A stretch of DNA of 64,000 nucleotides. Origin: a virus. Shown piece after piece: positions 13,794-53,632 of the stretch. The stretch lies in IMG/VR virus record IMGVR_UViG_3300038468_000190, positions 76,125-140,124 of that record; one strand, written 5' to 3'. Position 1 is the stretch's first letter. Each line of letters opens with the position of its first letter. The notes beneath the pieces were generated by a model. It was not told where the DNA came from and made no database searches. It saw only the letters and a program-made list of their open reading frames with translations. Made by a program: the position numbers and the translations under genes.

Positions 13794-14752
13794 TGGGAAA
13801 CTACGCGCTCGGCATCGTCGTCAATCCGAAACTCAAGGTACCCGTCCTGGTCCTCGCCGAGGGGGCCGACATCACGATCACGGCGATGGACGCTGAGGGG
13901 TACGAAGATCTCGGCTCGGGCTACTACGGCATGAGCGACTCGATTGCCCAGATGCTGGGCCTGCCGCGCTCGCACACGCCCCACGGCGTCACCGTCGAGG
14001 GTCAGGGCTACGGCACGTGCCTCTACACGGCGCTCTGCCTCGGCGCCCACCAGAACTTCGAGGCGCACGAGGGCCATCCGAATCGCTACCGCATCCAGAG
14101 CTACGGGCCCGACGGCGACGGCATTTGCTCGACGACCGACGATCGATCGAGCGAGGCCGACGAGTGGTGGCGGCGCGCCCGGAGGCTCGGGCTCGCGCGA
14201 GAAGTCGAGGAAGAGCAAGAAGAGGAGGACGTCGACGTCACGAGTAACTTCGACAGTCTCATCGAAGGCGAGAGCGTCGACGACGGCGTCGTCTCCCGCG
14301 TGAACACCATCAGCGTCGACGTCTCGAAGTCGGTCTCGGGCGACGTCTACCTCTGGGACAGCGCCTCGGGGCACCACCTCGTCGTCGCCGACTTCACGAT
14401 CCCGATGGCGTCCGGCGCCGAGGCGAGCGCGCTCTGGCAGCGCATCGGCGAGCCGAAGCTCGTGACGGAGGTGTCGCTCGAGCTCATCCTCGCGCTCGAT
14501 GTCCGGGGGCTCGACATCTCCGGAATAAACCTCCTCGGGCTTTTAGCGAGGGAGGCCGGGGCGAGCGACGAGGCCCTCCACGATTTCCGCTTCCGGTGGG
14601 AGGCGGGTCTCGATCCGTCGGCGCCCGTCACGCAGATGCAGCTCGCCTTCAAGAAGAACTCTTCGGAGGCGCGCCACGCGGCGCGCGCCGTCCGAGAGGC
14701 GGCCGAGTACAGGAGAGACGCCGGCTGGGAAGCGCTCGAGAGCTTGCCCTAA
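13793..14752 (+). CDS. GNAT-like acetyltransferase fold protein
   Basis: Acetyl-CoA-binding-like 'VEGQGYGTCLY' and 'RSSEADEWWRR'; GTG overlapping the upstream TAG. Confidence 0.5.
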   Translation: MGNYALGIVVNPKLKVPVLVLAEGADITITAMDAEGYEDLGSGYYGMSDSIAQMLGLPRSHTPHGVTVEGQGYGTCLYTALCLGAHQNFEAHEGHPNRYRIQSYGPDGDGICSTTDDRSSEADEWWRRARRLGLAREVEEEQEEEDVDVTSNFDSLIEGESVDDGVVSRVNTISVDVSKSVSGDVYLWDSASGHHLVVADFTIPMASGAEASALWQRIGEPKLVTEVSLELILALDVRGLDISGINLLGLLAREAGASDEALHDFRFRWEAGLDPSAPVTQMQLAFKKNSSEARHAARAVREAAEYRRDAGWEALESLP

Positions 14753-15156
14753 CGCTTCATGACGAGCGCGCCGAGGAGCGCGCCGACCGCGAACGCCACC
14801 CCCACGAAGGGCACCATGGACGGGCCTTTGCAGACCGGTAGGGCGTTGATCGCGTGATCCATCGCGGTCTGCGTGGCGTCCGGGACGCCCGGCGCGTAGG
14901 CCGCGTTGATGGCGTCACACTGGGCTTTCGGCATCGCGGTGTGGTCGGTATTCAGGCAGTCCATGAGCTCCTGCGAGAGACAGTCCGGAAGGGCCGCGGT
15001 GGCCGGTCCGAGCACACTGGCAGCGCCGAGTCCGTAGAGCACGACAGACAGGTTATCGCTTTTTGCTTGGCCGGGAAAGCATGAGATCTTCGAAGAACTC
15101 GTAGTCGAGCCATTCGTAGTAAAGAGAGCCGCAGAAGGGGCAGTGGCTCTTGGCAT
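14749..15156 (-). CDS. Cys-containing protein with C-terminal TM helix (start uncertain, probably ~15040)
   Basis: 'VPFVGVAFAVGALLGALVMKR' C-terminus. Confidence 0.45.
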   Translation of the reverse strand: MPRATAPSAALFTTNGSTTSSSKISCFPGQAKSDNLSVVLYGLGAASVLGPATAALPDCLSQELMDCLNTDHTAMPKAQCDAINAAYAPGVPDATQTAMDHAINALPVCKGPSMVPFVGVAFAVGALLGALVMKR

Positions 15157-15234
15157 GGGGCCCGGGCCGGAGCAGAAAGTGCCGGTCGCACTTTCCGCAT
15201 CGAAACCGGCCGAGCTCCCGGGCCGCGCCTGTCC

Positions 15235-15588
15235 TCAAATCCGAAAGAGGGTCGCGCCCTTGTGCCATCCGACGGGCTTTACTCCCTCCGAGGGGTCGTG
15301 GCAGTGCCACATGACGACGAGCCCGAGCATGGCCCCGTCGTCGTCGACGAAGGTGTCCGTCGCGCCCATGGGGAGCGACAGGGCCGCCCTCGCGCGCGCG
15401 GACGCCGTCCCGCTCACCGGCCCCGAGTAGAGCGTCCAGCCGCCTGGGACAGCCGGCTGGGGGCTCGGGGGCGGCGTCTTACAGATGGGCATCTCGTCCT
15501 CGATCGGCGCTCGGAGGAGATACGCGAGCGCCGCCGCGCCCGCCGCCGCGATCCCTCCGCCGAAAAATAGGAGCGCTCGCCTCTGCAT
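15235..15588 (-). CDS. Membrane-anchored hypothetical protein
   Basis: N-terminal 'MQRRALLFFGGGIAAAGAAALAYLL'. Confidence 0.6.
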   Translation of the reverse strand: MQRRALLFFGGGIAAAGAAALAYLLRAPIEDEMPICKTPPPSPQPAVPGGWTLYSGPVSGTASARARAALSLPMGATDTFVDDDGAMLGLVVMWHCHDPSEGVKPVGWHKGATLFRI

Positions 15589-16562
15589 CAGCGGAAATGC
15601 CTCCCCAGGTTTTCGAGGAGCTCCGTTTCCCTGATGGGCGGCTCGTAGGGCGTCGCCATCGCACCCGGGTCGAGAATGACCATGGAGAGCGGCCGCACGT
15701 CGCCCTCGATCTCCGCGTGGACGCGCCAGCCGACGTTCAAGAGGTGAAGGTCCTGAAAGACCAGGTCGCCGTACTGGACGGCGCTGAGCAAGGTCTGCCC
15801 AATGATGTCGCCGTAGCGGTTCACGTAGCCGTGGCCGCGCATCTTCTCGATGGCGGCGAGCATTTCCTGAAACGCCCTGTCGGCGATGTCCTCGACCTCT
15901 TCTTTCGAGAGGCCGTCGTACGCGCGGCGCATGAGCTTACCGCGCCAGGAATGGAAGATGAGCGCGTGCCGCCGGTAGTCCTGGAGCGACATCAGGACGA
16001 TGAAGAGCTCGCGCATCCGGACCTTCAGGTCTTGAGGAAACGTCGAGAGCGCGTCGCTCATCGCCGAGAGCGACGGTTCTTTCGGGTCGATGCCGGCCCG
16101 CTCGAGAATGGCCGGCGTCATACCGAGCCTGCGGAGCGTTTCCTCGGTCGCGAAGTCCGGGCGCCGGAGCACGGGCTCCGCCGCCTCGCGCACGATGCCA
16201 TAGACGGGCATCTCTTCGCTTCCGAAGATGACGTCCGGGTGGATCCGAACGACATCACGAACACGAAGGAACGCGTCGAGCTCTGCCGAGACCTCGGAAT
16301 CGCCGAGGAGCTCGGCCATGTAGGCCCAGATGGGGCCCTCGGTCCGGTCGCGGGTGAGCTTGACGACCCAGGGCGGCTCGGAGTCGAAGACGCAGCCCCA
16401 GAGCCCGCAGCCGAGGAGTTCTCCCATCGGGACAGCCATCGTCCGCCGAAACCGGTCGAGGTTTGCCTCGAGAAAGGAGGACCAGGCGCGCTTGGCCGCA
16501 AGCTCCTCGGTGAGCCCCTTGTCGAGCTCGATGGAGGTCATGGGCGCGCGGTTACGACGCAC
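15588..16562 (-). CDS. Protein kinase-like protein (paralog of 12918..13793)
   Basis: 'LLGCGLWGCVF', 'WVVKLTRDRTEGPIW', 'QDLHLLNVGW', 'ILDPG'. Confidence 0.75.
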   Translation of the reverse strand: MRRNRAPMTSIELDKGLTEELAAKRAWSSFLEANLDRFRRTMAVPMGELLGCGLWGCVFDSEPPWVVKLTRDRTEGPIWAYMAELLGDSEVSAELDAFLRVRDVVRIHPDVIFGSEEMPVYGIVREAAEPVLRRPDFATEETLRRLGMTPAILERAGIDPKEPSLSAMSDALSTFPQDLKVRMRELFIVLMSLQDYRRHALIFHSWRGKLMRRAYDGLSKEEVEDIADRAFQEMLAAIEKMRGHGYVNRYGDIIGQTLLSAVQYGDLVFQDLHLLNVGWRVHAEIEGDVRPLSMVILDPGAMATPYEPPIRETELLENLGRHFR

Positions 16563-16731
16563 CCGAAGGATTCTAAGTGAGGTCCCGGCCGGAATCGAGT
16601 GGGATCGGTTCGGGTCCCTGACGAGCTAGATCATCCATGGCGGTCGGCTGACGAAAACGCGCGAGCACCCGATTTCCTCTTCCTGACGAACGGCAATAAT
16701 CACTGGAAGCACGCCTGCTGCTGGTTGCGGC

Positions 16732-17776
16732 CTGACGAACGCCATCGGTCACCGTAGGCCTTCCACGCGATGAATCAGATCCTTGCCGAGTGGTCGCACC
16801 CTCTGACGAACGCCATCGGTCACCATAGGCCTTCCGAGCGAGAGCGTTGTGCAGGCGGCCGCGGTGATGCGAGCTGACGAACGCCATCCGTCACCCGGAG
16901 CCCTTGCGAGTAATATTGAGTGGCATGCCCGCGGGGACCTGAGTACTGACGAACGCCATCCGTCACCGTAGGCCTTCCGAGCTCGATGCGCCGGTTGCGC
17001 CTGTCGAGCCCGTGGGACTGACGAACGCCATCCGTCACCGTAGGCCTTATACGAGTCGCCCGAAAACATGGGCGCCGATGGGTGATCGAACTCTGACGAA
17101 CGCCATCGGTCACCGTAGGCCTTCCGATGGCGAACGACAGGCGTCCGCACCCCGGACCGAACTGCTGACGAACGCCATCGGTCACCGGAGCCCTTTGCGA
17201 GGTCGAGATCGAAATACGCTCGCCTCGTCCGAACTCTGACGAACGCCATCGGTCACCGGAGCCCTTGCGAGTCGCCACCGCCGTCGAGAACGGCGAGCTC
17301 CGGAGCACCTGACGAACGCCATCCGTCACCGTAGGCCTTCCGAGAAGCAGTGCGGCGTCTGGTACAGCCAGCGCGCAACCCTGACGAACGCCATCCGTCA
17401 CCGTAGGCCTTCCGAGCAGTAGCCGCGCCGGATGGATGGCGCTAACATTCGCACTGACGAACGCCATCCGTCACCGTAGGCCTTCCGAGTTTCCAACGGA
17501 GAGACTTGTACGGACAGAAAATGTCTGACGAACGCCATCCGTCACCGTAGGCCTTCCGAGTTCTCCGCCTGCGGGACTTCCGGCACGCGATCCATCTGAC
17601 GAACGCCATCCGTCACCGTAGGCCTTCCGAGCCGGAGGGCGGAGGGAATGATTCCGGAGAGACTCTCCTGACGAACGCCATCCGTCACCGTAGGCCTTCC
17701 GAGCTTTCTTTTTCGCCTCTTTAGACCTCTGCGCGTCTTCCTGACGAACGCCATCCGTCACCGTAGGCCTTCCGAG
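16732..17776 (-). CRISPR. CRISPR array: 15 repeats (36-bp consensus) and 14 unique 34-37-bp spacers
   Basis: Consensus on + is CTGACGAACGCCATCCGTCACCGTAGGCCTTCCGAG. Repeat starts are 16732, 16803, 16874, 16946, 17018, 17093, 17165, 17236, 17309, 17381, 17454, 17525, 17596, 17668, 17741. Degenerate stubs lie at ~16618, 16648 and 16683. On the minus strand the repeat ends in the hairpin UGACGGA-UGGCG-UUCGUCA. Confidence 0.97.
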
Positions 17777-19650
17777 CCGTCCCCTCGGAGCCGAGTGACT
17801 CCGAGGCTTTGCGGTGCGGTTTGCGAGCGGTGCAGATCGTCGGCTCTGCACTCGGCCGTAACTCGTGGAAGTTGTTCGTCGTCGGCTCTCGCGTCGCTGG
17901 ACCTCTCGAATGGGCTAGGGTGATCGATAGCATTCGGCCCCGAAGGGCCATCCGGTTGGTTCGCGGCGCCGGTAATGGCTCCGTTCCCCGTTCCACGCTT
18001 GTGGCGTGTCCGGTTCCGAGGGCGATCCGGCGGCGTGGAGGCCGAAGCCTCCTCCGCCGTGGTTCCGGTTCCACTCGGCATTGTCCGAAGGGCGGAGCCC
18101 TCCGGGTTTCCCCCGGCGAGTCCCGCCGGAGTTACTGGTGCGCCCGAAGGCGACCTGTAGTCTCGAAGATTCTTGGCGCTGTTCACTTCGCGGTCCTCGG
18201 TGTGGCCGCACGCGGGGCAGTGGAAATCCGGGTAGCCCGGATCCGTGTCCCTGACGTTACCGCACACCGAGCAGCGCCGCGAGCTCGCGAATTCTTTCTC
18301 CGCGAACTCCGTCGTGCCGCCGGCCCATCCCTGCTTGTATTCGATGCGCCGGCGGATGTCGCCCATGCGGGCAAACTGCACCCAGCCCGAGACGCGCTTT
18401 CGCGTCTGCTCGCCCGCCTCGGTTTTGCCGGCACGGGCCTTCATGTCCGCCACGAACGCGTCCCTCATGACGAGCGTCCCGGCGCCCGTGTCGACGACGG
18501 CGCGCGCGGCGCGGCCGGCAATGTAATCGCGGAGCTCGGTCGCGCGGCGCGAGTAGAGCGCCGCCTGAGCCTTGGCCCGGCGCCAGCCGTTCGACTGGAT
18601 GCGGTCTTTGCGCGGAGTGGTCTTCGGGTAGGCCTTGTGCCGGCGCGCCATGCGCCGCTGCCAGAGCGCGATCTTCCGCTCGTAGGCCGCGAGGCGCTTC
18701 TCTTCTCGGATGCCGACGATGTCCACCTCGCCGCCGCTCGTCACGACGAGATGCCGGACGCCGACCTCGACGCCGACGCGCTTGTCCGTCCGCGTCACGG
18801 GTCGCTCCCGGAGGGCTCTGCCGGCTCCACGGGGCCCAGGACTCGGCCGCGGCACAGTCCCCCTGAGCGAGACGTACCAGCGCCCGCCCCATTCGCGAAG
18901 GCCGACGGCGGAGCACTGCCCGCCCCCTATGAACCGATGCGAACCCTCCTCGGTCGACGGAAGATAGCCGCGCTCCTTGAGCTTCACCCAGCCGACGCCT
19001 GGGATCTTGATCGCCCGCTCCGTCACGCGAAGCGCGCTCGGCTGGTCGGCGTGCCAGCGGCGGTTATCGCCGGACCGAAAGCGGGGCTCTCCGAGTTCGC
19101 AGCCGGGCGCTCCGCGGCGAGCGTCACACTCGGAGTGATCGCCGCGCGCGTGCTTCTTCAGCCGGCGCCAGAAGTGCTTGTAGGCATTGCCGACGTCGGC
19201 GGCCGCTTCCCGAACGGCGAAGGCACTCACCTCCGTCAGCCAGCGGAGCTCGGCCGAAGCGTGCTTAACCGCCGTGAGCTCCTTGTGCAGGGCATCGGCG
19301 TTCGGCATGGACTCGGGCTCCGCGTACGGGAGCCTCACCTGAAACTTCCAGAGCGTCCGTGGCGCCGCGCCGCGCTTGGCGCGCTTGGCCAGGCGCTCCG
19401 CGGGCTCTCCGAAGACGAGGGCGTGAAGGCCGAGCCCGAGCCACCACGCGGCGAGCCCGGTAGCGTGATCGAAGCCGGCAAGGGCCCGAAGGCCGCTAGC
19501 GACAGAGTAGATGCCGTACTCGGCGCGCCAGCGCTCGAGAGTCCAGTTGTACGCCACGCGTGCCGCTGCGATGTGCCGCGCGAGCAGGCGCCGTTGCTCG
19601 ACAGTGGGGTCGAGCTCGGTGCGGTAGGCGCGATCGATCATGTCGGTCAT
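17758..19650 (-). CDS. tnpB: TnpB/Cas12f-like RNA-guided protein with substituted RuvC catalytic residues (predicted nuclease-dead), CRISPR-associated
   Basis: N-terminal 'RAYRTELDPTVEQRRLLARHIAAARVAYNW', 'IKIPGVGWVKL', RuvC-I 'VGVEVGV', RuvC-II 'LVMRDA', Zn finger 'SSRRCSVCG...FHCPACG', RuvC-III 'DREVNSAKNL'. Confidence 0.92.
   Translation of the reverse strand: MTDMIDRAYRTELDPTVEQRRLLARHIAAARVAYNWTLERWRAEYGIYSVASGLRALAGFDHATGLAAWWLGLGLHALVFGEPAERLAKRAKRGAAPRTLWKFQVRLPYAEPESMPNADALHKELTAVKHASAELRWLTEVSAFAVREAAADVGNAYKHFWRRLKKHARGDHSECDARRGAPGCELGEPRFRSGDNRRWHADQPSALRVTERAIKIPGVGWVKLKERGYLPSTEEGSHRFIGGGQCSAVGLREWGGRWYVSLRGTVPRPSPGPRGAGRALRERPVTRTDKRVGVEVGVRHLVVTSGGEVDIVGIREEKRLAAYERKIALWQRRMARRHKAYPKTTPRKDRIQSNGWRRAKAQAALYSRRATELRDYIAGRAARAVVDTGAGTLVMRDAFVADMKARAGKTEAGEQTRKRVSGWVQFARMGDIRRRIEYKQGWAGGTTEFAEKEFASSRRCSVCGNVRDTDPGYPDFHCPACGHTEDREVNSAKNLRDYRSPSGAPVTPAGLAGGNPEGSALRTMPSGTGTTAEEASASTPPDRPRNRTRHKRGTGNGAITGAANQPDGPSGPNAIDHPSPFERSSDARADDEQLPRVTAECRADDLHRSQTAPQSLGVTRLRGDGSEGLR
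17777..18160 (-). ncRNA. Putative structured RNA scaffold/leader (omega/tracr-like) between the RuvC-III motif and the array
   Basis: Three cUUCGg tetraloop hairpins on the minus strand (17936-17949, 18037-18052, 18141-18152), a GGGGAAACCC hairpin (~18104-18113), and stems at 17783-17806 and 17830-17851. Confidence 0.6.
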
Positions 19651-19652
19651 GG

Positions 19653-19904
19653 TCAAGGGGTCTTCGGGACGGCGCACTCGATGATAAGGGCGTTCGGGGA
19701 CTCGCGGTAGGTGCAGGCGCGGGCGTTCGGGGAGGGCTTGGGACCGTCGCCGATGGTCCAGTGAGCCAGGAGGCAGAAGCCGACAAATGCGACGGCGCCC
19801 AAAAGCCAGAGGAATGGCCCGGGGACGCCCTTACGCGCGGCGACGATCACGCCGACCGTACACACGATGGAGAGCGCGACGTTCATGTGCTCGAAGAACG
19901 TCAC
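19653..19904 (-). CDS. Small membrane protein
   Basis: Two hydrophobic segments; GTGA coupling. Confidence 0.5.
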   Translation of the reverse strand: MTFFEHMNVALSIVCTVGVIVAARKGVPGPFLWLLGAVAFVGFCLLAHWTIGDGPKPSPNARACTYRESPNALIIECAVPKTP

Positions 19905-20815
19905 GGCGCCTTGCCTTTCACGAGCTCGAGGAGGCGCTGGGAGTTGTGCTCGAGCTCGAGCAGGCGCAGGGCGTTGTGCTCGTAGAGGAAGGCGATGTCC
20001 TTCTCGAAGAGCGGTATCGCCACGCGCGGCTGCGCTGCGCTGGGCGGATCCTGAAGTGCCGCTCCCAGAGGAAACCGGCAGACCGCAGGCCATCGCTCGT
20101 CGTTGATGTGCTCCGGAAGCATCATCGCCGGCACGAGCCCGAACGACCCGTCCAAAATCTCGGGATACGGCTCGACGCCAGCCGGCCAGTTCTCGTCACG
20201 CGTGTTCGGCATGAGAACGGGACAGCGCCGCTCCGTCTCGCGCATCCGCTGGTCGACCCTGCCGACGATGCGCCCATGCGGAGCGCGGAGTAGATGGAGC
20301 CCGAAGTGCGAGCGGATAGCCTGGGCGACGCCGCGCTCGATGTCGTCTAGCGGGGAGCGCCCGTCGTAGACTCCGCGGCTCCGTCGAAGCGTCGTTTTGA
20401 GAGGCCCGGACAGATCTCCGATGTACGCCTCCTGAGCGTCGTGAAGGAGCGCCTCGAGCTGGAGCGCGTAGTCGTCCGGATGCTCGAGGCTCACGACGAG
20501 CCACACCCAGAGCGAATGCTCAGCGACGGAGTAGCCCTTACCGGTGTGTCCGACGAAGCGGTTCAGGTGGGCGAGCGAGTGCGCAATATCCTTCAGGCGG
20601 ACGTCGCCCGGCTTCGGGCTCAAGAGATCGAAGCCGACCCCACTGAACGTCTCGATGATGGTCATGGGCTTCGGCCGCGTCTCGGCGAGGAGCGCCTCCG
20701 CCGCCTCGCGCCAGGTGGCGAAGTCGTCGCCGCCGACCGTGAGGCCTTCCATGGGCGTGAGCTCCTCGAGAGCTGTCTCGAGAAGGTCGAGGGCGGTTTT
20801 GAGGTGGTCGGTCAT
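19901..20815 (-). CDS. HD-domain 5'-deoxynucleotidase (YfbR/YfdR-like)
   Basis: 'DIAHSLAHLNRFVGHT...YSVAEHS', 'LLHDAQEAYIGDL..PLK'. Confidence 0.85.
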   Translation of the reverse strand: MTDHLKTALDLLETALEELTPMEGLTVGGDDFATWREAAEALLAETRPKPMTIIETFSGVGFDLLSPKPGDVRLKDIAHSLAHLNRFVGHTGKGYSVAEHSLWVWLVVSLEHPDDYALQLEALLHDAQEAYIGDLSGPLKTTLRRSRGVYDGRSPLDDIERGVAQAIRSHFGLHLLRAPHGRIVGRVDQRMRETERRCPVLMPNTRDENWPAGVEPYPEILDGSFGLVPAMMLPEHINDERWPAVCRFPLGAALQDPPSAAQPRVAIPLFEKDIAFLYEHNALRLLELEHNSQRLLELVKGKAP

Positions 20816-21084
20816 CGGTGATAGTTCGCGAAGTCTCGAATGGCCCTCCGGAGCATGACCCCCTCGAGCCCGCAATGGCCGCACGTGTCGGCGAGGGTCG
20901 CGTCGGACGCGTATCCTGCGAGCGCCCGCAAAAACCTCTGGAGCATGCGAAGGTGGTCGATGAAGCTGTGGTAGGTGTTCGTGATGTCCCGGAGTTCCTG
21001 GACCTGACGGTCGATGCTCCGCGCGAAGTCGGTCTTGTGATCCTCGTACTGGGGATCGAAGTCGGTGGGGCCGGGGCGGCTCAT
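20812..21084 (-). CDS. Hypothetical protein
   Basis: ATGA-coupled 90 aa. Confidence 0.55.
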   Translation of the reverse strand: MSRPGPTDFDPQYEDHKTDFARSIDRQVQELRDITNTYHSFIDHLRMLQRFLRALAGYASDATLADTCGHCGLEGVMLRRAIRDFANYHR

Positions 21085-21725
21085 GACTCGAGGCTCTGTT
21101 TAAATGCCGCGAGACGCTTCCGGTCCTGCATCTTAAAGCGGCGTATTTCGACGCTGGGCGCCACCGAGCGGAGAAGCGCCTCGGCTTCTTTCATTCGGCC
21201 ATCGAGCACTCTGGCGGCGCCCATCGTGCCCCGTCGCCAAGTCTGCACGCACCTCATCAGCGCCACGAACAGCGCTCGGCGCTCTACCTTGATGTCCGGG
21301 TCCACCTCGGGCTCGCCGCTACCAGGGGCCGCGTACGAGTCAGGGTCGATCGCGGTGCTCAGCAGGGAGTACGCCTCCTGCGCAATCGTGAGAGTGCGGA
21401 TATGCTCTTGCAGAAGTTCTGCCCGCGTTAGCCCCTCTAGCCATTCTCTCGAGTCGTCCGGATCGGCGGCGCCGCACCAGAGCACCTTGGCAGCCTCACG
21501 CATTGCGTAGGCCAGATCGATCTCGGATAGAAGCTCGTGGGCCACGTCGTGAAAATCAACGCGGTCCACGCCATTTAGTTGGAGGATCGCATCCGCGAGC
21601 GCCTGCGCGTCGTCGGGCCTGCCGTAGTCGTCCAGCGTGACAGCTAGTCCGTTGGTGTAGGCATTGTCGGCTTTGCGCTTGGTCGGCCGCAGCTGCACTT
21701 TCTTGGCCCGCCTGGTCTTCCTCAT
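21081..21725 (-). CDS. Hypothetical protein
   Basis: ATGA-coupled 214 aa. Confidence 0.55.
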   Translation of the reverse strand: MRKTRRAKKVQLRPTKRKADNAYTNGLAVTLDDYGRPDDAQALADAILQLNGVDRVDFHDVAHELLSEIDLAYAMREAAKVLWCGAADPDDSREWLEGLTRAELLQEHIRTLTIAQEAYSLLSTAIDPDSYAAPGSGEPEVDPDIKVERRALFVALMRCVQTWRRGTMGAARVLDGRMKEAEALLRSVAPSVEIRRFKMQDRKRLAAFKQSLES

Positions 21726-22117
21726 GTCTTGAATGCTTTCTCTGCTCGCCGCCTCCGGAGCTCGTGGGCGCGAGCCCAGCCCGAGTCCGTGAGCCAGAAC
21801 CTCGGATTCGCCCCCGTGCCGCGCCACTCGAGAAGCCCCGCGGCGACCAAGTCGTCGACCGCGTCCCAGTCGTCGTGTCCCTGGATCTGCGATCCATCGC
21901 GGAGCGTCGTCGAGTACTTGCCCGACCAGGTCCCGCCGCTCGGCACCATGAACTGTGGATGGCGTTCGGGGTTACAGCTCAGGCGTCGAAGGTCCGGGTA
22001 TCCCCTACTGTCGACACACACGGTCTCGATGTAGAGAACCAGGCTGTCGTGGTTTTTCCCGAACAACTCCGGCAGGACTCGATCGATCCTGTCCGGGGGC
22101 GCTTGTCGGCGCTCCAT
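21722..22117 (-). CDS. Phage-type hypothetical protein
   Basis: 131 aa with an AAGGAG RBS; 'GHDDWDAVDDLVAAGLL'. Confidence 0.65.
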   Translation of the reverse strand: MERRQAPPDRIDRVLPELFGKNHDSLVLYIETVCVDSRGYPDLRRLSCNPERHPQFMVPSGGTWSGKYSTTLRDGSQIQGHDDWDAVDDLVAAGLLEWRGTGANPRFWLTDSGWARAHELRRRRAEKAFKT

Positions 22118-22384: not shown

Positions 22385-22678
22385 TCAGAGGGTGTAGTAG
22401 TTCTCGATGAGCTCGAGGAGCCGGCGTCGCCAGTCGATGGGAGCAAGGAGCCACGTCTCCCCTCCGGGCGCCGAGCCCATGTCGTAGAGCGCCTCGTGGA
22501 TGCGGCGCGCCAAAAGGTGCGGATCGGGAAGCCTGTGTGCCTCGAGCCGCTCTACCTTCGCGTGGAGCTCCGCAATGATCCGCTTGTCGAAGGCCGCCTC
22601 CTCGCGGAGCGTCTTGTTCTCGAGCTCGAGAGCCCTGAGCCGGCGCTCTCGCTCTGCGTCGGGGGTCGTGTCAATCAC
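22385..22678 (-). CDS. Coiled-coil hypothetical protein
   Basis: 97-aa ORF coupled to the FkbM gene. Confidence 0.5.
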   Translation of the reverse strand: MIDTTPDAERERRLRALELENKTLREEAAFDKRIIAELHAKVERLEAHRLPDPHLLARRIHEALYDMGSAPGGETWLLAPIDWRRRLLELIENYYTL

Positions 22679-23450
22679 CGGAAACCTCGCGGGGCATACA
22701 GAGCAGGGTCTCAGCCTCGCCTACGGCGTTTAGCCCCTCCTGGTCGAGCACGGGACCGAGGTGGCCGGTGTGGCGGATCTCCTGAATCGTGTGCGTCTTG
22801 TCGAGAAGGAGCATGTACTCCTCGCTGAGAGAGCCGTGGTGCTCGAGAAAGAGGATCGGCTTCTGCCCGAGCAGGAGCCCCGCTCCGCGGAGGACTTCAT
22901 GCTCGTGCCCCTCGACGTCGATCTTGATGATCGCTCCACGGGCGTCGCAAGCCGGGGTCACATCGCTGTTGCCCATGACCATGAAGTCGAGCGTCTCTCC
23001 GCGGACGCTCACGGTTTGCGCTCCACCGCGGGTCTGCTCTACGGTCCCGCCGCCGAGCTCGTGGTCGCGATACGAGAGGACCAGAGCCGCGGGCTCCTGC
23101 GTCGCTGCGCACTGAAACGTCGTTACGCGGCGCCTGTAACCGTTGACGTCAAGAGTCTTTTGCAGGAGCCCGTAGAGGCGAGGATGCGGCTCGATGGCGA
23201 CGACCCGCCGGTCGCCGATACGGCATCCTAGCAAGGTGTACCAACCGAAGTTCGCGCCGACGTCGATGAGCGGCCCCGTCGGATACCGGCGGAGCGCCGA
23301 TGCAAAAGCGCTCGTGACCCAGGGCTCCCAGTCGCCCTCGGTCAAGAGGTGCGGCGCGAGCGAGGTGTCGCGGGTGTCGACGTAGATCTTGTCGCCGTGC
23401 CGCGTCGTCGTGAGCGCGGTGAAGTCGCCGCAGTAGTGGGAAATGTTCAT
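22671..23450 (-). CDS. FkbM family SAM-dependent methyltransferase
   Basis: 'LIDVGANFGWYT', 'VVAIEP', 'IKIDVEGHEHEVLRGA'. Confidence 0.9.
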   Translation of the reverse strand: MNISHYCGDFTALTTTRHGDKIYVDTRDTSLAPHLLTEGDWEPWVTSAFASALRRYPTGPLIDVGANFGWYTLLGCRIGDRRVVAIEPHPRLYGLLQKTLDVNGYRRRVTTFQCAATQEPAALVLSYRDHELGGGTVEQTRGGAQTVSVRGETLDFMVMGNSDVTPACDARGAIIKIDVEGHEHEVLRGAGLLLGQKPILFLEHHGSLSEEYMLLLDKTHTIQEIRHTGHLGPVLDQEGLNAVGEAETLLCMPREVSGD

Positions 23451-23689
23451 GGGGACTCCGGGGGTTTCGTTTCGGCCGAGGCAAGTAGCGCGTCCCTCCA
23501 CGCTTCCCAGGCTCGGAGCTGCACCGAGACGAGGTTCAGCATGGGCAAGAGCTGCTTGATCCAGGCCTGGTGTTTTCTGAGCGTCTCGTAGTGGATGTCC
23601 AGGCGCTGCTCGTTGGCGTGCTGCCAGTAGAGGAGCGCGACCGTGTTGAAGAGCGACGCGAGGAAGGTGACGAGCAGCATCCAGCTCAT
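23447..23689 (-). CDS. Small membrane protein
   Basis: N-terminal TM helix; ATGA coupling. Confidence 0.55.
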   Translation of the reverse strand: MSWMLLVTFLASLFNTVALLYWQHANEQRLDIHYETLRKHQAWIKQLLPMLNLVSVQLRAWEAWRDALLASAETKPPESP

Positions 23690-52520: not shown

Positions 52521-53632
52521 GGTCCCGTCCTTTCCGCGCCGATCATGGCCCTGAGCGCGGGCTCGTTCTTCTTCGGCCAGCTCCATGCTGCTCCGATCGC
52601 CAGGGCGTTCTTCTCGGCCGCTTCGGAGAGCCAGGTCCACCGGTCGTAGGCTTCCTTGATCCCAGCCGCGATGGCCTCGAGCGTGACGGACGGCGCCGTC
52701 GCTCCCGGGAAGTCGTCGAGCGGCATGCTTGCGCCGTGCTTCACCTCGACCATCCCTGGTAGCGCAATCGCTGCGTACTCCGAGTGCCCCGTGCACGTCG
52801 TGATCGCGACGGGCGTGCCGGTCGCCAGGGCCTCGAGCGGCACCATCCCGAACCCCTCTGCCCGCGACGGCTGACAGACGAGGTGCATCGAATTGTAGAG
52901 CGCCGCGATCATGCGCTGCCCGAGCGTGAGCCCGGGGCTTACCGTGACGTCGTCCTCGGTGAGCGCGTAGTCGGCCGCCCACCAGCGCACCTTCGAGCAG
53001 TGGGTCGGATTCATGACGACGTAAAGGCGCGCCGTCGCCGGGATGGCGCGCTTGTCCTTCAGGATCTTCCACGCACCGAGAAGGAGCTTCGTGCTCTTCC
53101 TCTCCGCCTCCGTGCTCGACATGTGAAGCACGTTGAAGAGACCTTGCGCGTAGTCTTTCCGCGTTGCCTCGAGCCTCGGCGCAAACGGGCGGTGCACGTT
53201 CGAGAAGACGCCGTGCGGCGCGACGAGGACACGCTTGTCGGGCCACGCTTTCGAGAGGACCTTTGCCCCCCACGCGCTCGGTGTGAGCAGGCCCCCGGTC
53301 AGCAACCCGCGCGGCAAGATGTCGCTCGGCTTCGTGACGGCCTCTATGAAACCGTGCGGGATCGTTTCGCTGTTCGGGGCAAGAAGGAGCCAGTGCTCCT
53401 CGTGGCCGCCCGCTCGGTGCGCCCGAAGCAGGCCCTCCGGCGCCCCGATGTTCAAGGAGAGCCTCGCCGCCTCGCCGCCCGAGAGCCACTTCGCTATCGC
53501 CTCGGGCTCGCCATCGAGCGGATAGAGCCCAGCGAGCTCGCCCATCGCGACAAGGCTCTCCGTCATCCCGCGCGTCACCTGTGAAAACGAGCTCTCGCCG
53601 CTCGCGTAGCCGTAGAGCCTGACGGAGTTCAT
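52517..53632 (-). CDS. Glycosyltransferase family 4 (GT-B)
   Basis: 'PSRAEGFGMVPLEALATGTPV', 'TPSAW', 'PHGV', 'ERKS'. Confidence 0.9.
   Translation of the reverse strand: MNSVRLYGYASGESSFSQVTRGMTESLVAMGELAGLYPLDGEPEAIAKWLSGGEAARLSLNIGAPEGLLRAHRAGGHEEHWLLLAPNSETIPHGFIEAVTKPSDILPRGLLTGGLLTPSAWGAKVLSKAWPDKRVLVAPHGVFSNVHRPFAPRLEATRKDYAQGLFNVLHMSSTEAERKSTKLLLGAWKILKDKRAIPATARLYVVMNPTHCSKVRWWAADYALTEDDVTVSPGLTLGQRMIAALYNSMHLVCQPSRAEGFGMVPLEALATGTPVAITTCTGHSEYAAIALPGMVEVKHGASMPLDDFPGATAPSVTLEAIAAGIKEAYDRWTWLSEAAEKNALAIGAAWSWPKKNEPALRAMIGAERTGP

Follow-up and report, generated by a model that had tools for sequence, protein, structure and literature searches.

The last 64,000 nucleotides (nt) of the 140,124-bp virus record IMGVR_UViG_3300038468_000190 from IMG/VR, which is rated complete by CheckV, contain a TnpB-like effector gene and, directly downstream of its open reading frame (ORF), a CRISPR array. 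This 64-kb stretch is called the window here, and positions refer to it unless another sequence is named. The effector ORF continues beyond its RuvC-III motif through about 135 low-complexity codons and terminates at a TGA codon inside the first repeat of the array (Table 1). Comparison with homologous loci indicates that the ~410 nt between RuvC-III and repeat 1 are very probably a gene for a guide-scaffold RNA of the trans-activating CRISPR RNA (tracrRNA) type, encoded on the effector strand. We infer that this RNA is stable and bound by the protein, where it begins and ends, how it is processed and that it derives from an omega-RNA of TnpB.

An earlier note on this DNA, made from the sequence alone, had pointed out the read-through tail with its stop in repeat 1, three UUCG hairpins, a GAAA-capped hairpin and repeated GGAAC motifs, and all of these were located in the present analysis. 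RNA folding and covariance across homologs, which the note had proposed as checks, both speak for a structured RNA. Its statement that there was no clear anti-repeat was mistaken, as described below.

The anti-repeat

A 36-nt anti-repeat is located at 17905-17940, close to both the effector and the array, as expected of a tracrRNA. In an ungapped duplex it pairs with 28 of the repeat's 36 positions, leaving the last 4-5 bases of the repeat unpaired. The repeats of the homologous loci share a common 3' end and diverge widely elsewhere. Despite such differences, a gap-free complement of the locus's own repeat is present in all 18 non-redundant loci, with 19-31 paired positions, and the end of the anti-repeat lies 124-136 nt from repeat 1 (172 nt in locus L044). 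When all loci are placed in a common register, anti-repeats form on average 26.8 of 35 pairs with their own repeats and 17.9 (standard deviation 3.9) with foreign ones, and none of 5000 permutations reaches the observed total. Most positions of the anti-repeat:repeat duplex show three to six pair types. In addition, RNAalifold applied to a plain MAFFT alignment independently predicts the same long-range helix with compensatory changes.

This fixed-register comparison of own and foreign repeats replaced a scan for anti-repeats by duplex energy alone, which was not decisive in a single locus and in which a GC-rich chance site outscored the true anti-repeat in three loci. Some distal repeats of the window array (17165-17271, 16874-16909) carry a linked variant 5' half, and their pairing with the anti-repeat is poorer than that of the main repeat type.

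The scaffold modules

The RNA encoded by the tail of the ORF folds better than expected from its composition. The minimum energy of 17758-18200 is -204.2 kcal/mol compared with -178.6 +/- 7.0 kcal/mol for 100 dinucleotide shuffles (z -3.66), none of which folds as well. The tail is also enriched in the motifs noticed earlier: its 429 nt hold 5 copies of GGAAC, the window average being 0.49 per kb per strand, and 4 copies of the 6-nt UUCG-loop word against a background of 0.76 per kb.

Covariation is found on both sides of the anti-repeat. On its 5' side there is a conserved multi-stem scaffold, again as in tracrRNAs. In the 5' scaffold module (alignment A4), 85.3% of cells are paired compared with 73.6% in shuffled and 32-51% in slid alignments, and 23 of the 38 pairs show compensatory change, a level reached by none of 500 shuffles. 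A covariance model of this module, R1, recovers the element in distant loci outside its training set (L041, L003/L043 and L044); the window holds no second R1 copy. The helix that immediately precedes the anti-repeat (columns 305-311 with 344-350) shows 5-8 compensatory changes per pair. On the 3' side, the module between the anti-repeat and repeat 1 (alignment A5, 17813-17908) has 72% of cells paired compared with 26-41% when slid, and 36 cells in which both sides have changed compared with 19.7, again with 0 of 500 shuffles reaching the observed value. The scaffold is conserved in sequence and position across loci whose proteins are only 36-50% identical. The many G-U pairs assign the RNA to the effector strand.

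An insertion of ~40 nt with extra GGAAC copies (17984-18024) is present in the scaffold of both the window and its 80% relative, L114, and both have UUCG loops where the other loci have GNRA-type loops. The exchange of loops is a remodelling of helix tips specific to this lineage.

Two further structural ideas were given up. A pseudoknot joining the unpaired 3' bases of the repeat to either the conserved 8-nt loop of the 3' module or the 5' scaffold showed no consistent covariation on inspection, and the idea that the near-invariant 13-nt motif of the 3' module is a relic "repeat 0" pairing with the anti-repeat matched only 4 invariant base pairs. An Rfam scan of 14000-22000 (E up to 10) returned nothing in the tail. 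The only terminator-like site detected by a terminator scan is a repeat hairpin.

Proposed pairing in cis and in trans

The proposed RNA would consist of three parts. The 5' multi-helix scaffold, running from 18025-18160 on to ~17941, is presumed to bind the effector; the anti-repeat would form an imperfect duplex of ~28 bp with each repeat, leaving its last 4-5 bases free; and the conserved hairpin module at 17777-17904 would make up the third part. Repeat 1 would pair in cis, so that the primary transcript resembles an omega-RNA with spacer 1 as its guide. Later repeats would pair in trans, giving a layout of tracrRNA and CRISPR RNA (crRNA). Translation would proceed through the RNA gene in a single frame and terminate within repeat 1, and the resulting tail would be disordered, with an amino acid sequence that is itself unconserved.

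A bolder form of this proposal, which we regard as possible but not probable, is that selection holds the frame open because translation up to repeat 1 is itself functional, for example through co-translational loading of the protein in cis as the scaffold refolds behind the ribosome or through protection of the array transcript from premature termination. The system would then be a living intermediate, in which unit 1 acts in cis as an omega-RNA, later units act in trans and a nuclease-dead effector binds its targets.

It is rather unlikely that pairing occurs in cis only. The region would then be a structured leader or resemble the single guide of an omega-RNA. One functional RNA would comprise the scaffold, the anti-repeat, the linker module, repeat 1 and spacer 1, and the remaining array units would be processed or employed in some other way, or not at all. 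Such an arrangement agrees with the fold of a single transcript spanning 18160-17705, in which the anti-repeat and repeat 1 pair with probabilities of 0.87-1.0, the module after the anti-repeat is enclosed as a multiloop and spacer 1 is left as a 3' guide, the layout of an omega-RNA. It also agrees with the conservation and structure of the linker, which would not be expected of a mere intergenic spacer. However, most loci keep 4-16 well-preserved repeats with varied spacers, and the seven effector-proximal repeats of the window array are identical, which fits the use of every unit and hence pairing in trans. The cis and trans modes are not mutually exclusive. The module at 17777-17904 may serve as a leader, belong to the tracrRNA as its 3' part or be the "loop" of a single guide acting in cis.

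Constraint on the tail and its open frame

The substitution pattern changes at the end of RuvC-III. Between L002 and L117, the core (the 900 nt preceding the RuvC-III end) has 2/2/36 substitutions at codon positions 1/2/3, and the tail has 2/1/1. Between the window and L114, the rates are 0.15/0.10/0.35 in the core and 0.16/0.12/0.15 in the tail. The loss of the third-position excess sets in exactly at the RuvC-III end. AlphaFold2 gives a predicted local distance difference test score (pLDDT) of ~30 for residues 512-639. Because helices change in a compensatory manner, substitutions are flat over codon positions and pLDDT is ~30, the tail is best read as a tracrRNA gene and not as a protein domain.

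The frame of the tail is nevertheless kept open. Frame 0 has no stop codon before repeat 1 in 19 of 21 loci (in L044 the ORF ends 6 nt short of the repeat, and the exception is L041), compared with 0-9 stops in frames 1 and 2, with means of about 2.4 and 3.7. In most homologous loci the stop codon occupies the same position of the repeat. Moreover, the invariant motif of the 3' module occurs at 13 different distances from RuvC-III, all in phase, for which the chance is ~(1/3)^12. L003, in which a different frame reads the motif, has an open ORF nonetheless, which points to selection for an open frame and not for a particular peptide. The open frame may couple translation to guide biogenesis, to loading of the protein in cis or to read-through of the array.

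The open frame 0 and the constant phase of the motif at 13 offsets, together with the basic, Gly/Pro/Ser-rich composition of the tail, would also suit a functional protein extension, for instance a disordered region that binds RNA or a partner, with the RNA structure being secondary. This is very unlikely, since the third-position excess is absent, the helices covary at the expense of the peptide, L003 keeps its ORF open while reading the motif in a different frame, L041 has the RNA without the ORF, and the predicted structure has low confidence throughout the tail. Furthermore, the equivalent tail of Cas12n has been reported to be dispensable by truncation (bioRxiv 10.64898/2026.03.27.714800). 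The comparison of loci already refutes the reading that the hairpins arose by chance in GC-rich sequence, whether non-coding or read through: the GC content of 66% would favour good folding and few stop codons, but folding exceeds that of dinucleotide shuffles, covariation exceeds every shuffled and slid control, and sequence and position are kept across loci with divergent proteins.

In L041 the effector ORF ends 36 codons past RuvC-III, and the scaffold, anti-repeat and array lie ~680 nt further on. Because this locus carries all three beyond an early stop, the ORF and the RNA are uncoupled in its lineage, and the RNA does not depend on the ORF.

Several observations weigh against the interpretation of the tail as a tracrRNA gene or go beyond it. 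The duplex of the repeat with the tail in the window (29 bp, -40.4 kcal/mol) is not extreme for GC-rich DNA, lying at the 0.1-1 percentile of the background; because the energy in a single locus is not striking, the case for the anti-repeat rests on covariation across loci. The function of the conserved module at 17777-17904 is not accounted for by this interpretation. Because the frame stays open at a constant phase, translating the tail also has some importance that lies outside it. A promoter scan found no promoter-like site, for a host whose promoter type is unknown. Finally, L047 and three other short-tailed relatives have no tail. The homolog in L047 (3001-7434) is 490 amino acids long and 52% identical, its stop codon lies 20 codons past RuvC-III, and the 3 kb downstream hold no array, no direct repeats and no scaffold hit. 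It may be a solo effector or have its RNA encoded elsewhere.

Distribution of the family

Viral and metagenome contigs are the sole source of close homologs of the effector (36-82% identity), whose neighbours are of phage type, for example ThyX, PolA-UDG, methyltransferases and lysozyme. The best matches among 185,579 prokaryote species genomes are ordinary TnpBs with at most 30% identity. When only the core, without the tail, served as query, an exhaustive search of 1.84 billion representative proteins yielded 23 clusters at E <=1e-30. Tails of at least 93 residues past RuvC-III are present in 16 of the 21 near-full-length cluster representatives, compared with 10-45 residues in ordinary TnpB hits, and the array starts 340-480 nt past RuvC-III in nearly every locus with enough downstream DNA. 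The long-tailed architecture is a trait of the family.

The effector and its neighbourhood

The effector matches the NCBIfam model guided_TnpB (1.9e-40) and the Pfam model Cas12f1-like_TNB (5e-15). The closest solved structures, by sequence and fold, are ISFba1 TnpB and ISDra2 TnpB, followed by Cas12f, Cas12p, LaTranC and RdCas12n. AlphaFold2 predicts the protein with high pLDDT through residue ~511, and the zinc ribbon and RuvC-III motif end at position 18187. The RuvC positions are E304 (RuvC-I), R405 (the site of the usual RuvC-II Glu) and D495 (RuvC-III). R405 aligns with the RuvC-II Glu of RdCas12n and ISFba1 TnpB, and Arg is invariant at this position across 26 homologs; the RuvC-I residue is Glu in the window and Asp or Glu in the family, and the RuvC-III Asp is retained. 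Because the RuvC site is unusual, it is plausible that the effector family binds DNA without cutting it, and judging from these residues the family is probably nuclease-dead.

No match to the Cas1 family was found in the whole 140-kb phage record, and the ORFs neighbouring the effector match no Cas family. The ORF at 22671-23501 (minus strand), 3 kb upstream of the effector, encodes an FkbM-family methyltransferase (Pfam 1.1e-14); the remaining neighbour ORFs match nothing in Pfam. No transposon ends or TnpA were noticed near the locus, although no search aimed at them was made.

Two spacers of the window array (16977-17018 and 17345-17376) match the phage's own genome at 95% and 97%, at positions 70471-70512 and 53449-53480 of the record, outside the window, and for one of them there are further matches to repeated copies close by (70171-70294 of the record). 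Either the targets of these spacers are in sibling phages, or self-targeting is tolerated or used by a non-cutting effector. In relatives, identical spacers recur within arrays, three consecutive ones in L122 (4680-4900) and spacers 1 and 5 in L039 (4895-5230). Such recurrence in the sequences indicates duplication of array units and not new acquisition, consistent with the absence of Cas1 and Cas2.

Table 1. Positions of the effector gene, the putative tracrRNA and the array in the window, and of one relative locus on its own contig
Feature	Positions	Strand	Remarks
Effector ORF	17758-19677	minus	639 codons (amino acids); TGA stop at 17758-17760
Folded effector core, TnpB-like	18187-19677	minus	helix-turn-helix/WED/REC, RuvC and zinc-ribbon TNB; from profile and structure matches
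Catalytic-site codons	E304 18766-18768; R405 18463-18465; D495 18193-18195	minus	from alignment
Open ORF tail (putative tracrRNA gene and leader)	17758-18186	minus	~135 codons and stop; low-complexity, frame 0
5' scaffold module	18025-18160	minus	four to five helices; includes UUCG hairpins 1 and 2 and the GAAA stem
UUCG hairpin 1	18141-18152	minus	
GAAA-capped stem	~18102-18116	minus	
UUCG hairpin 2	18037-18052	minus	
Middle scaffold	17934-18024	minus	insertion specific to window and L114; helices before the anti-repeat, including UUCG hairpin 3; alignments A2 and A3
UUCG hairpin 3	17936-17949	minus	
Anti-repeat, 36 nt	17905-17940	minus	gap-free complement of repeat positions 1-31; 128 nt upstream of repeat 1
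Module between anti-repeat and repeat 1	17777-17904	minus	conserved, structured
Covarying hairpin	17830-17851	minus	conserved 8-nt loop
Near-invariant 13-nt motif	17818-17830	minus	10 of 13 bases invariant across 15 loci
Terminal hairpin	17783-17806	minus	from fold
Repeat 1	17741-17776	minus	contains the effector TGA (17758-17760)
CRISPR array	16680-17776	minus	~15 repeats of 36 nt, spacers of 35-37 nt; repeats at distal end degenerate
L041 locus (own contig)	4303-5422		putative tracr scaffold at 4980-5110; model R1 match E 7e-4

Comparison with known systems

The closest published precedent is Cas12n (type V-N, formerly V-U4 or c2c9), for which a disordered C-terminal tail and an overlap of the tracrRNA with the ORF are reported (PMC12216341; bioRxiv 10.64898/2026.03.27.714800). 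Both systems have a miniature TnpB-like effector, a tracrRNA within the DNA that encodes a disordered C-terminal tail, an anti-repeat near the end of that tail and an array downstream. However, the effector is no closer to RdCas12n (9J09, E 4.5e-11, residues 251-504) than to TnpBs (1e-16 to 1e-18); the match to RdCas12n spans only the RuvC/TNB half, and in the Foldseek ranking RdCas12n takes place 36 and plain TnpBs places 1-3. Cas12n is actinobacterial, whereas the present effector family is phage-borne. At the level of residues, the effector lacks the intact D-E-D RuvC site of Cas12n, the RuvC-II Glu being replaced in its family by an invariant Arg. Furthermore, the ORF here extends across all ~410 nt of the RNA region and terminates within repeat 1, and an extra conserved module of 128 nt follows the anti-repeat.

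The omega-RNAs of TnpB overlap the end of tnpB. In the TnpB omega-RNA (also called reRNA) of IS200/IS605 and IS607 elements, as in the window, the guide scaffold starts within the 3' end of the nuclease ORF and on the same strand. The scaffold here begins within about 25 nt of RuvC-III, where constraint at the RNA level sets in, and the transcript acting in cis folds as scaffold and then guide. The first ~35 residues of the tail align with the C-termini of TnpBs, extending to residue ~401 of ISDra2 TnpB and, with the IS607 TnpB model, to query residue 542. Unlike in omega-RNA, the guide is not fused to the scaffold and comes from a ~15-unit repeat-spacer array through the 28-bp anti-repeat duplex, and only the first array unit can mimic a fused guide. 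When model R1 was run against about 100 loci of TnpBs and relatives, significant hits came from family members only. One marginal hit fell at the expected site, the 3' end of the TnpB of L005 (E 0.29 for a search space of 526 kb and 0.048 for one of 86 kb), and other hits in TnpB loci were at noise level. The earlier note had suggested an omega-RNA-derived tracr scaffold. The tracrRNA part of this suggestion is borne out by the covariation of the anti-repeat in 18 loci, while we infer the descent from omega-RNA from the position of the RNA, the ~35-residue C-terminal match and published precedent.

TranC and the type V-U groups are published intermediates between TnpB and CRISPR systems, thought to have been born when an omega-RNA split into tracrRNA and crRNA. 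Like the present family, they combine TnpB-sized proteins with short arrays and lack Cas1, Cas2 and Cas4. In contrast, the tracrRNA has been reported to lie outside the C-terminal region in the TranC clades tested, and the match of the effector to LaTranC is weak (E 0.03). Cas12f shares the multi-stem scaffold and the long repeat:anti-repeat duplex, encoded between effector gene and array, but its tracrRNA is intergenic and its protein has no unstructured tail (bioRxiv 10.64898/2026.03.27.714800). TldR, Cas12m and Cas12k resemble the effector in being TnpB-derived with an impaired or absent RuvC site, and they are RNA-guided binders that do not cleave DNA. However, TldR uses a single fused guide, and Cas12m, like Cas12r, needs no tracrRNA. 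Cas12p and Cas12r are likewise phage-encoded miniature type V systems, but Cas12p has an active RuvC site, binds thioredoxin and has a different repeat end. The Cas12p "hacker", Cas12r and Cas-delta were also considered and judged to be distinct systems.

With Cas12n, the TnpB omega-RNAs, TranC and the V-U groups as precedents, the principle is not new, and the earlier note overstated its novelty. What is specific to the present family is that it is rare, confined to phages and no closer to Cas12n than to TnpBs, and that it has an altered RuvC-II site, an ORF open into repeat 1 and an extra module. About 130 annotated codons in this effector family would in reality be an RNA gene, and the tracrRNA and anti-repeat would supply the missing parts for reconstituting a very rare, phage-only, TnpB-like CRISPR family. 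The family may represent a second, independent lineage beside Cas12n in which the ORF-overlap layout of TnpB and omega-RNA survives next to a true array, and it thereby bears on how omega-RNAs split into tracrRNA and crRNA. The strictly kept open frame over the RNA gene and the replacement of Glu by Arg in RuvC-II suggest a connection, open to testing, of translation with guide biogenesis and with binding-only targeting in conflicts between phages.

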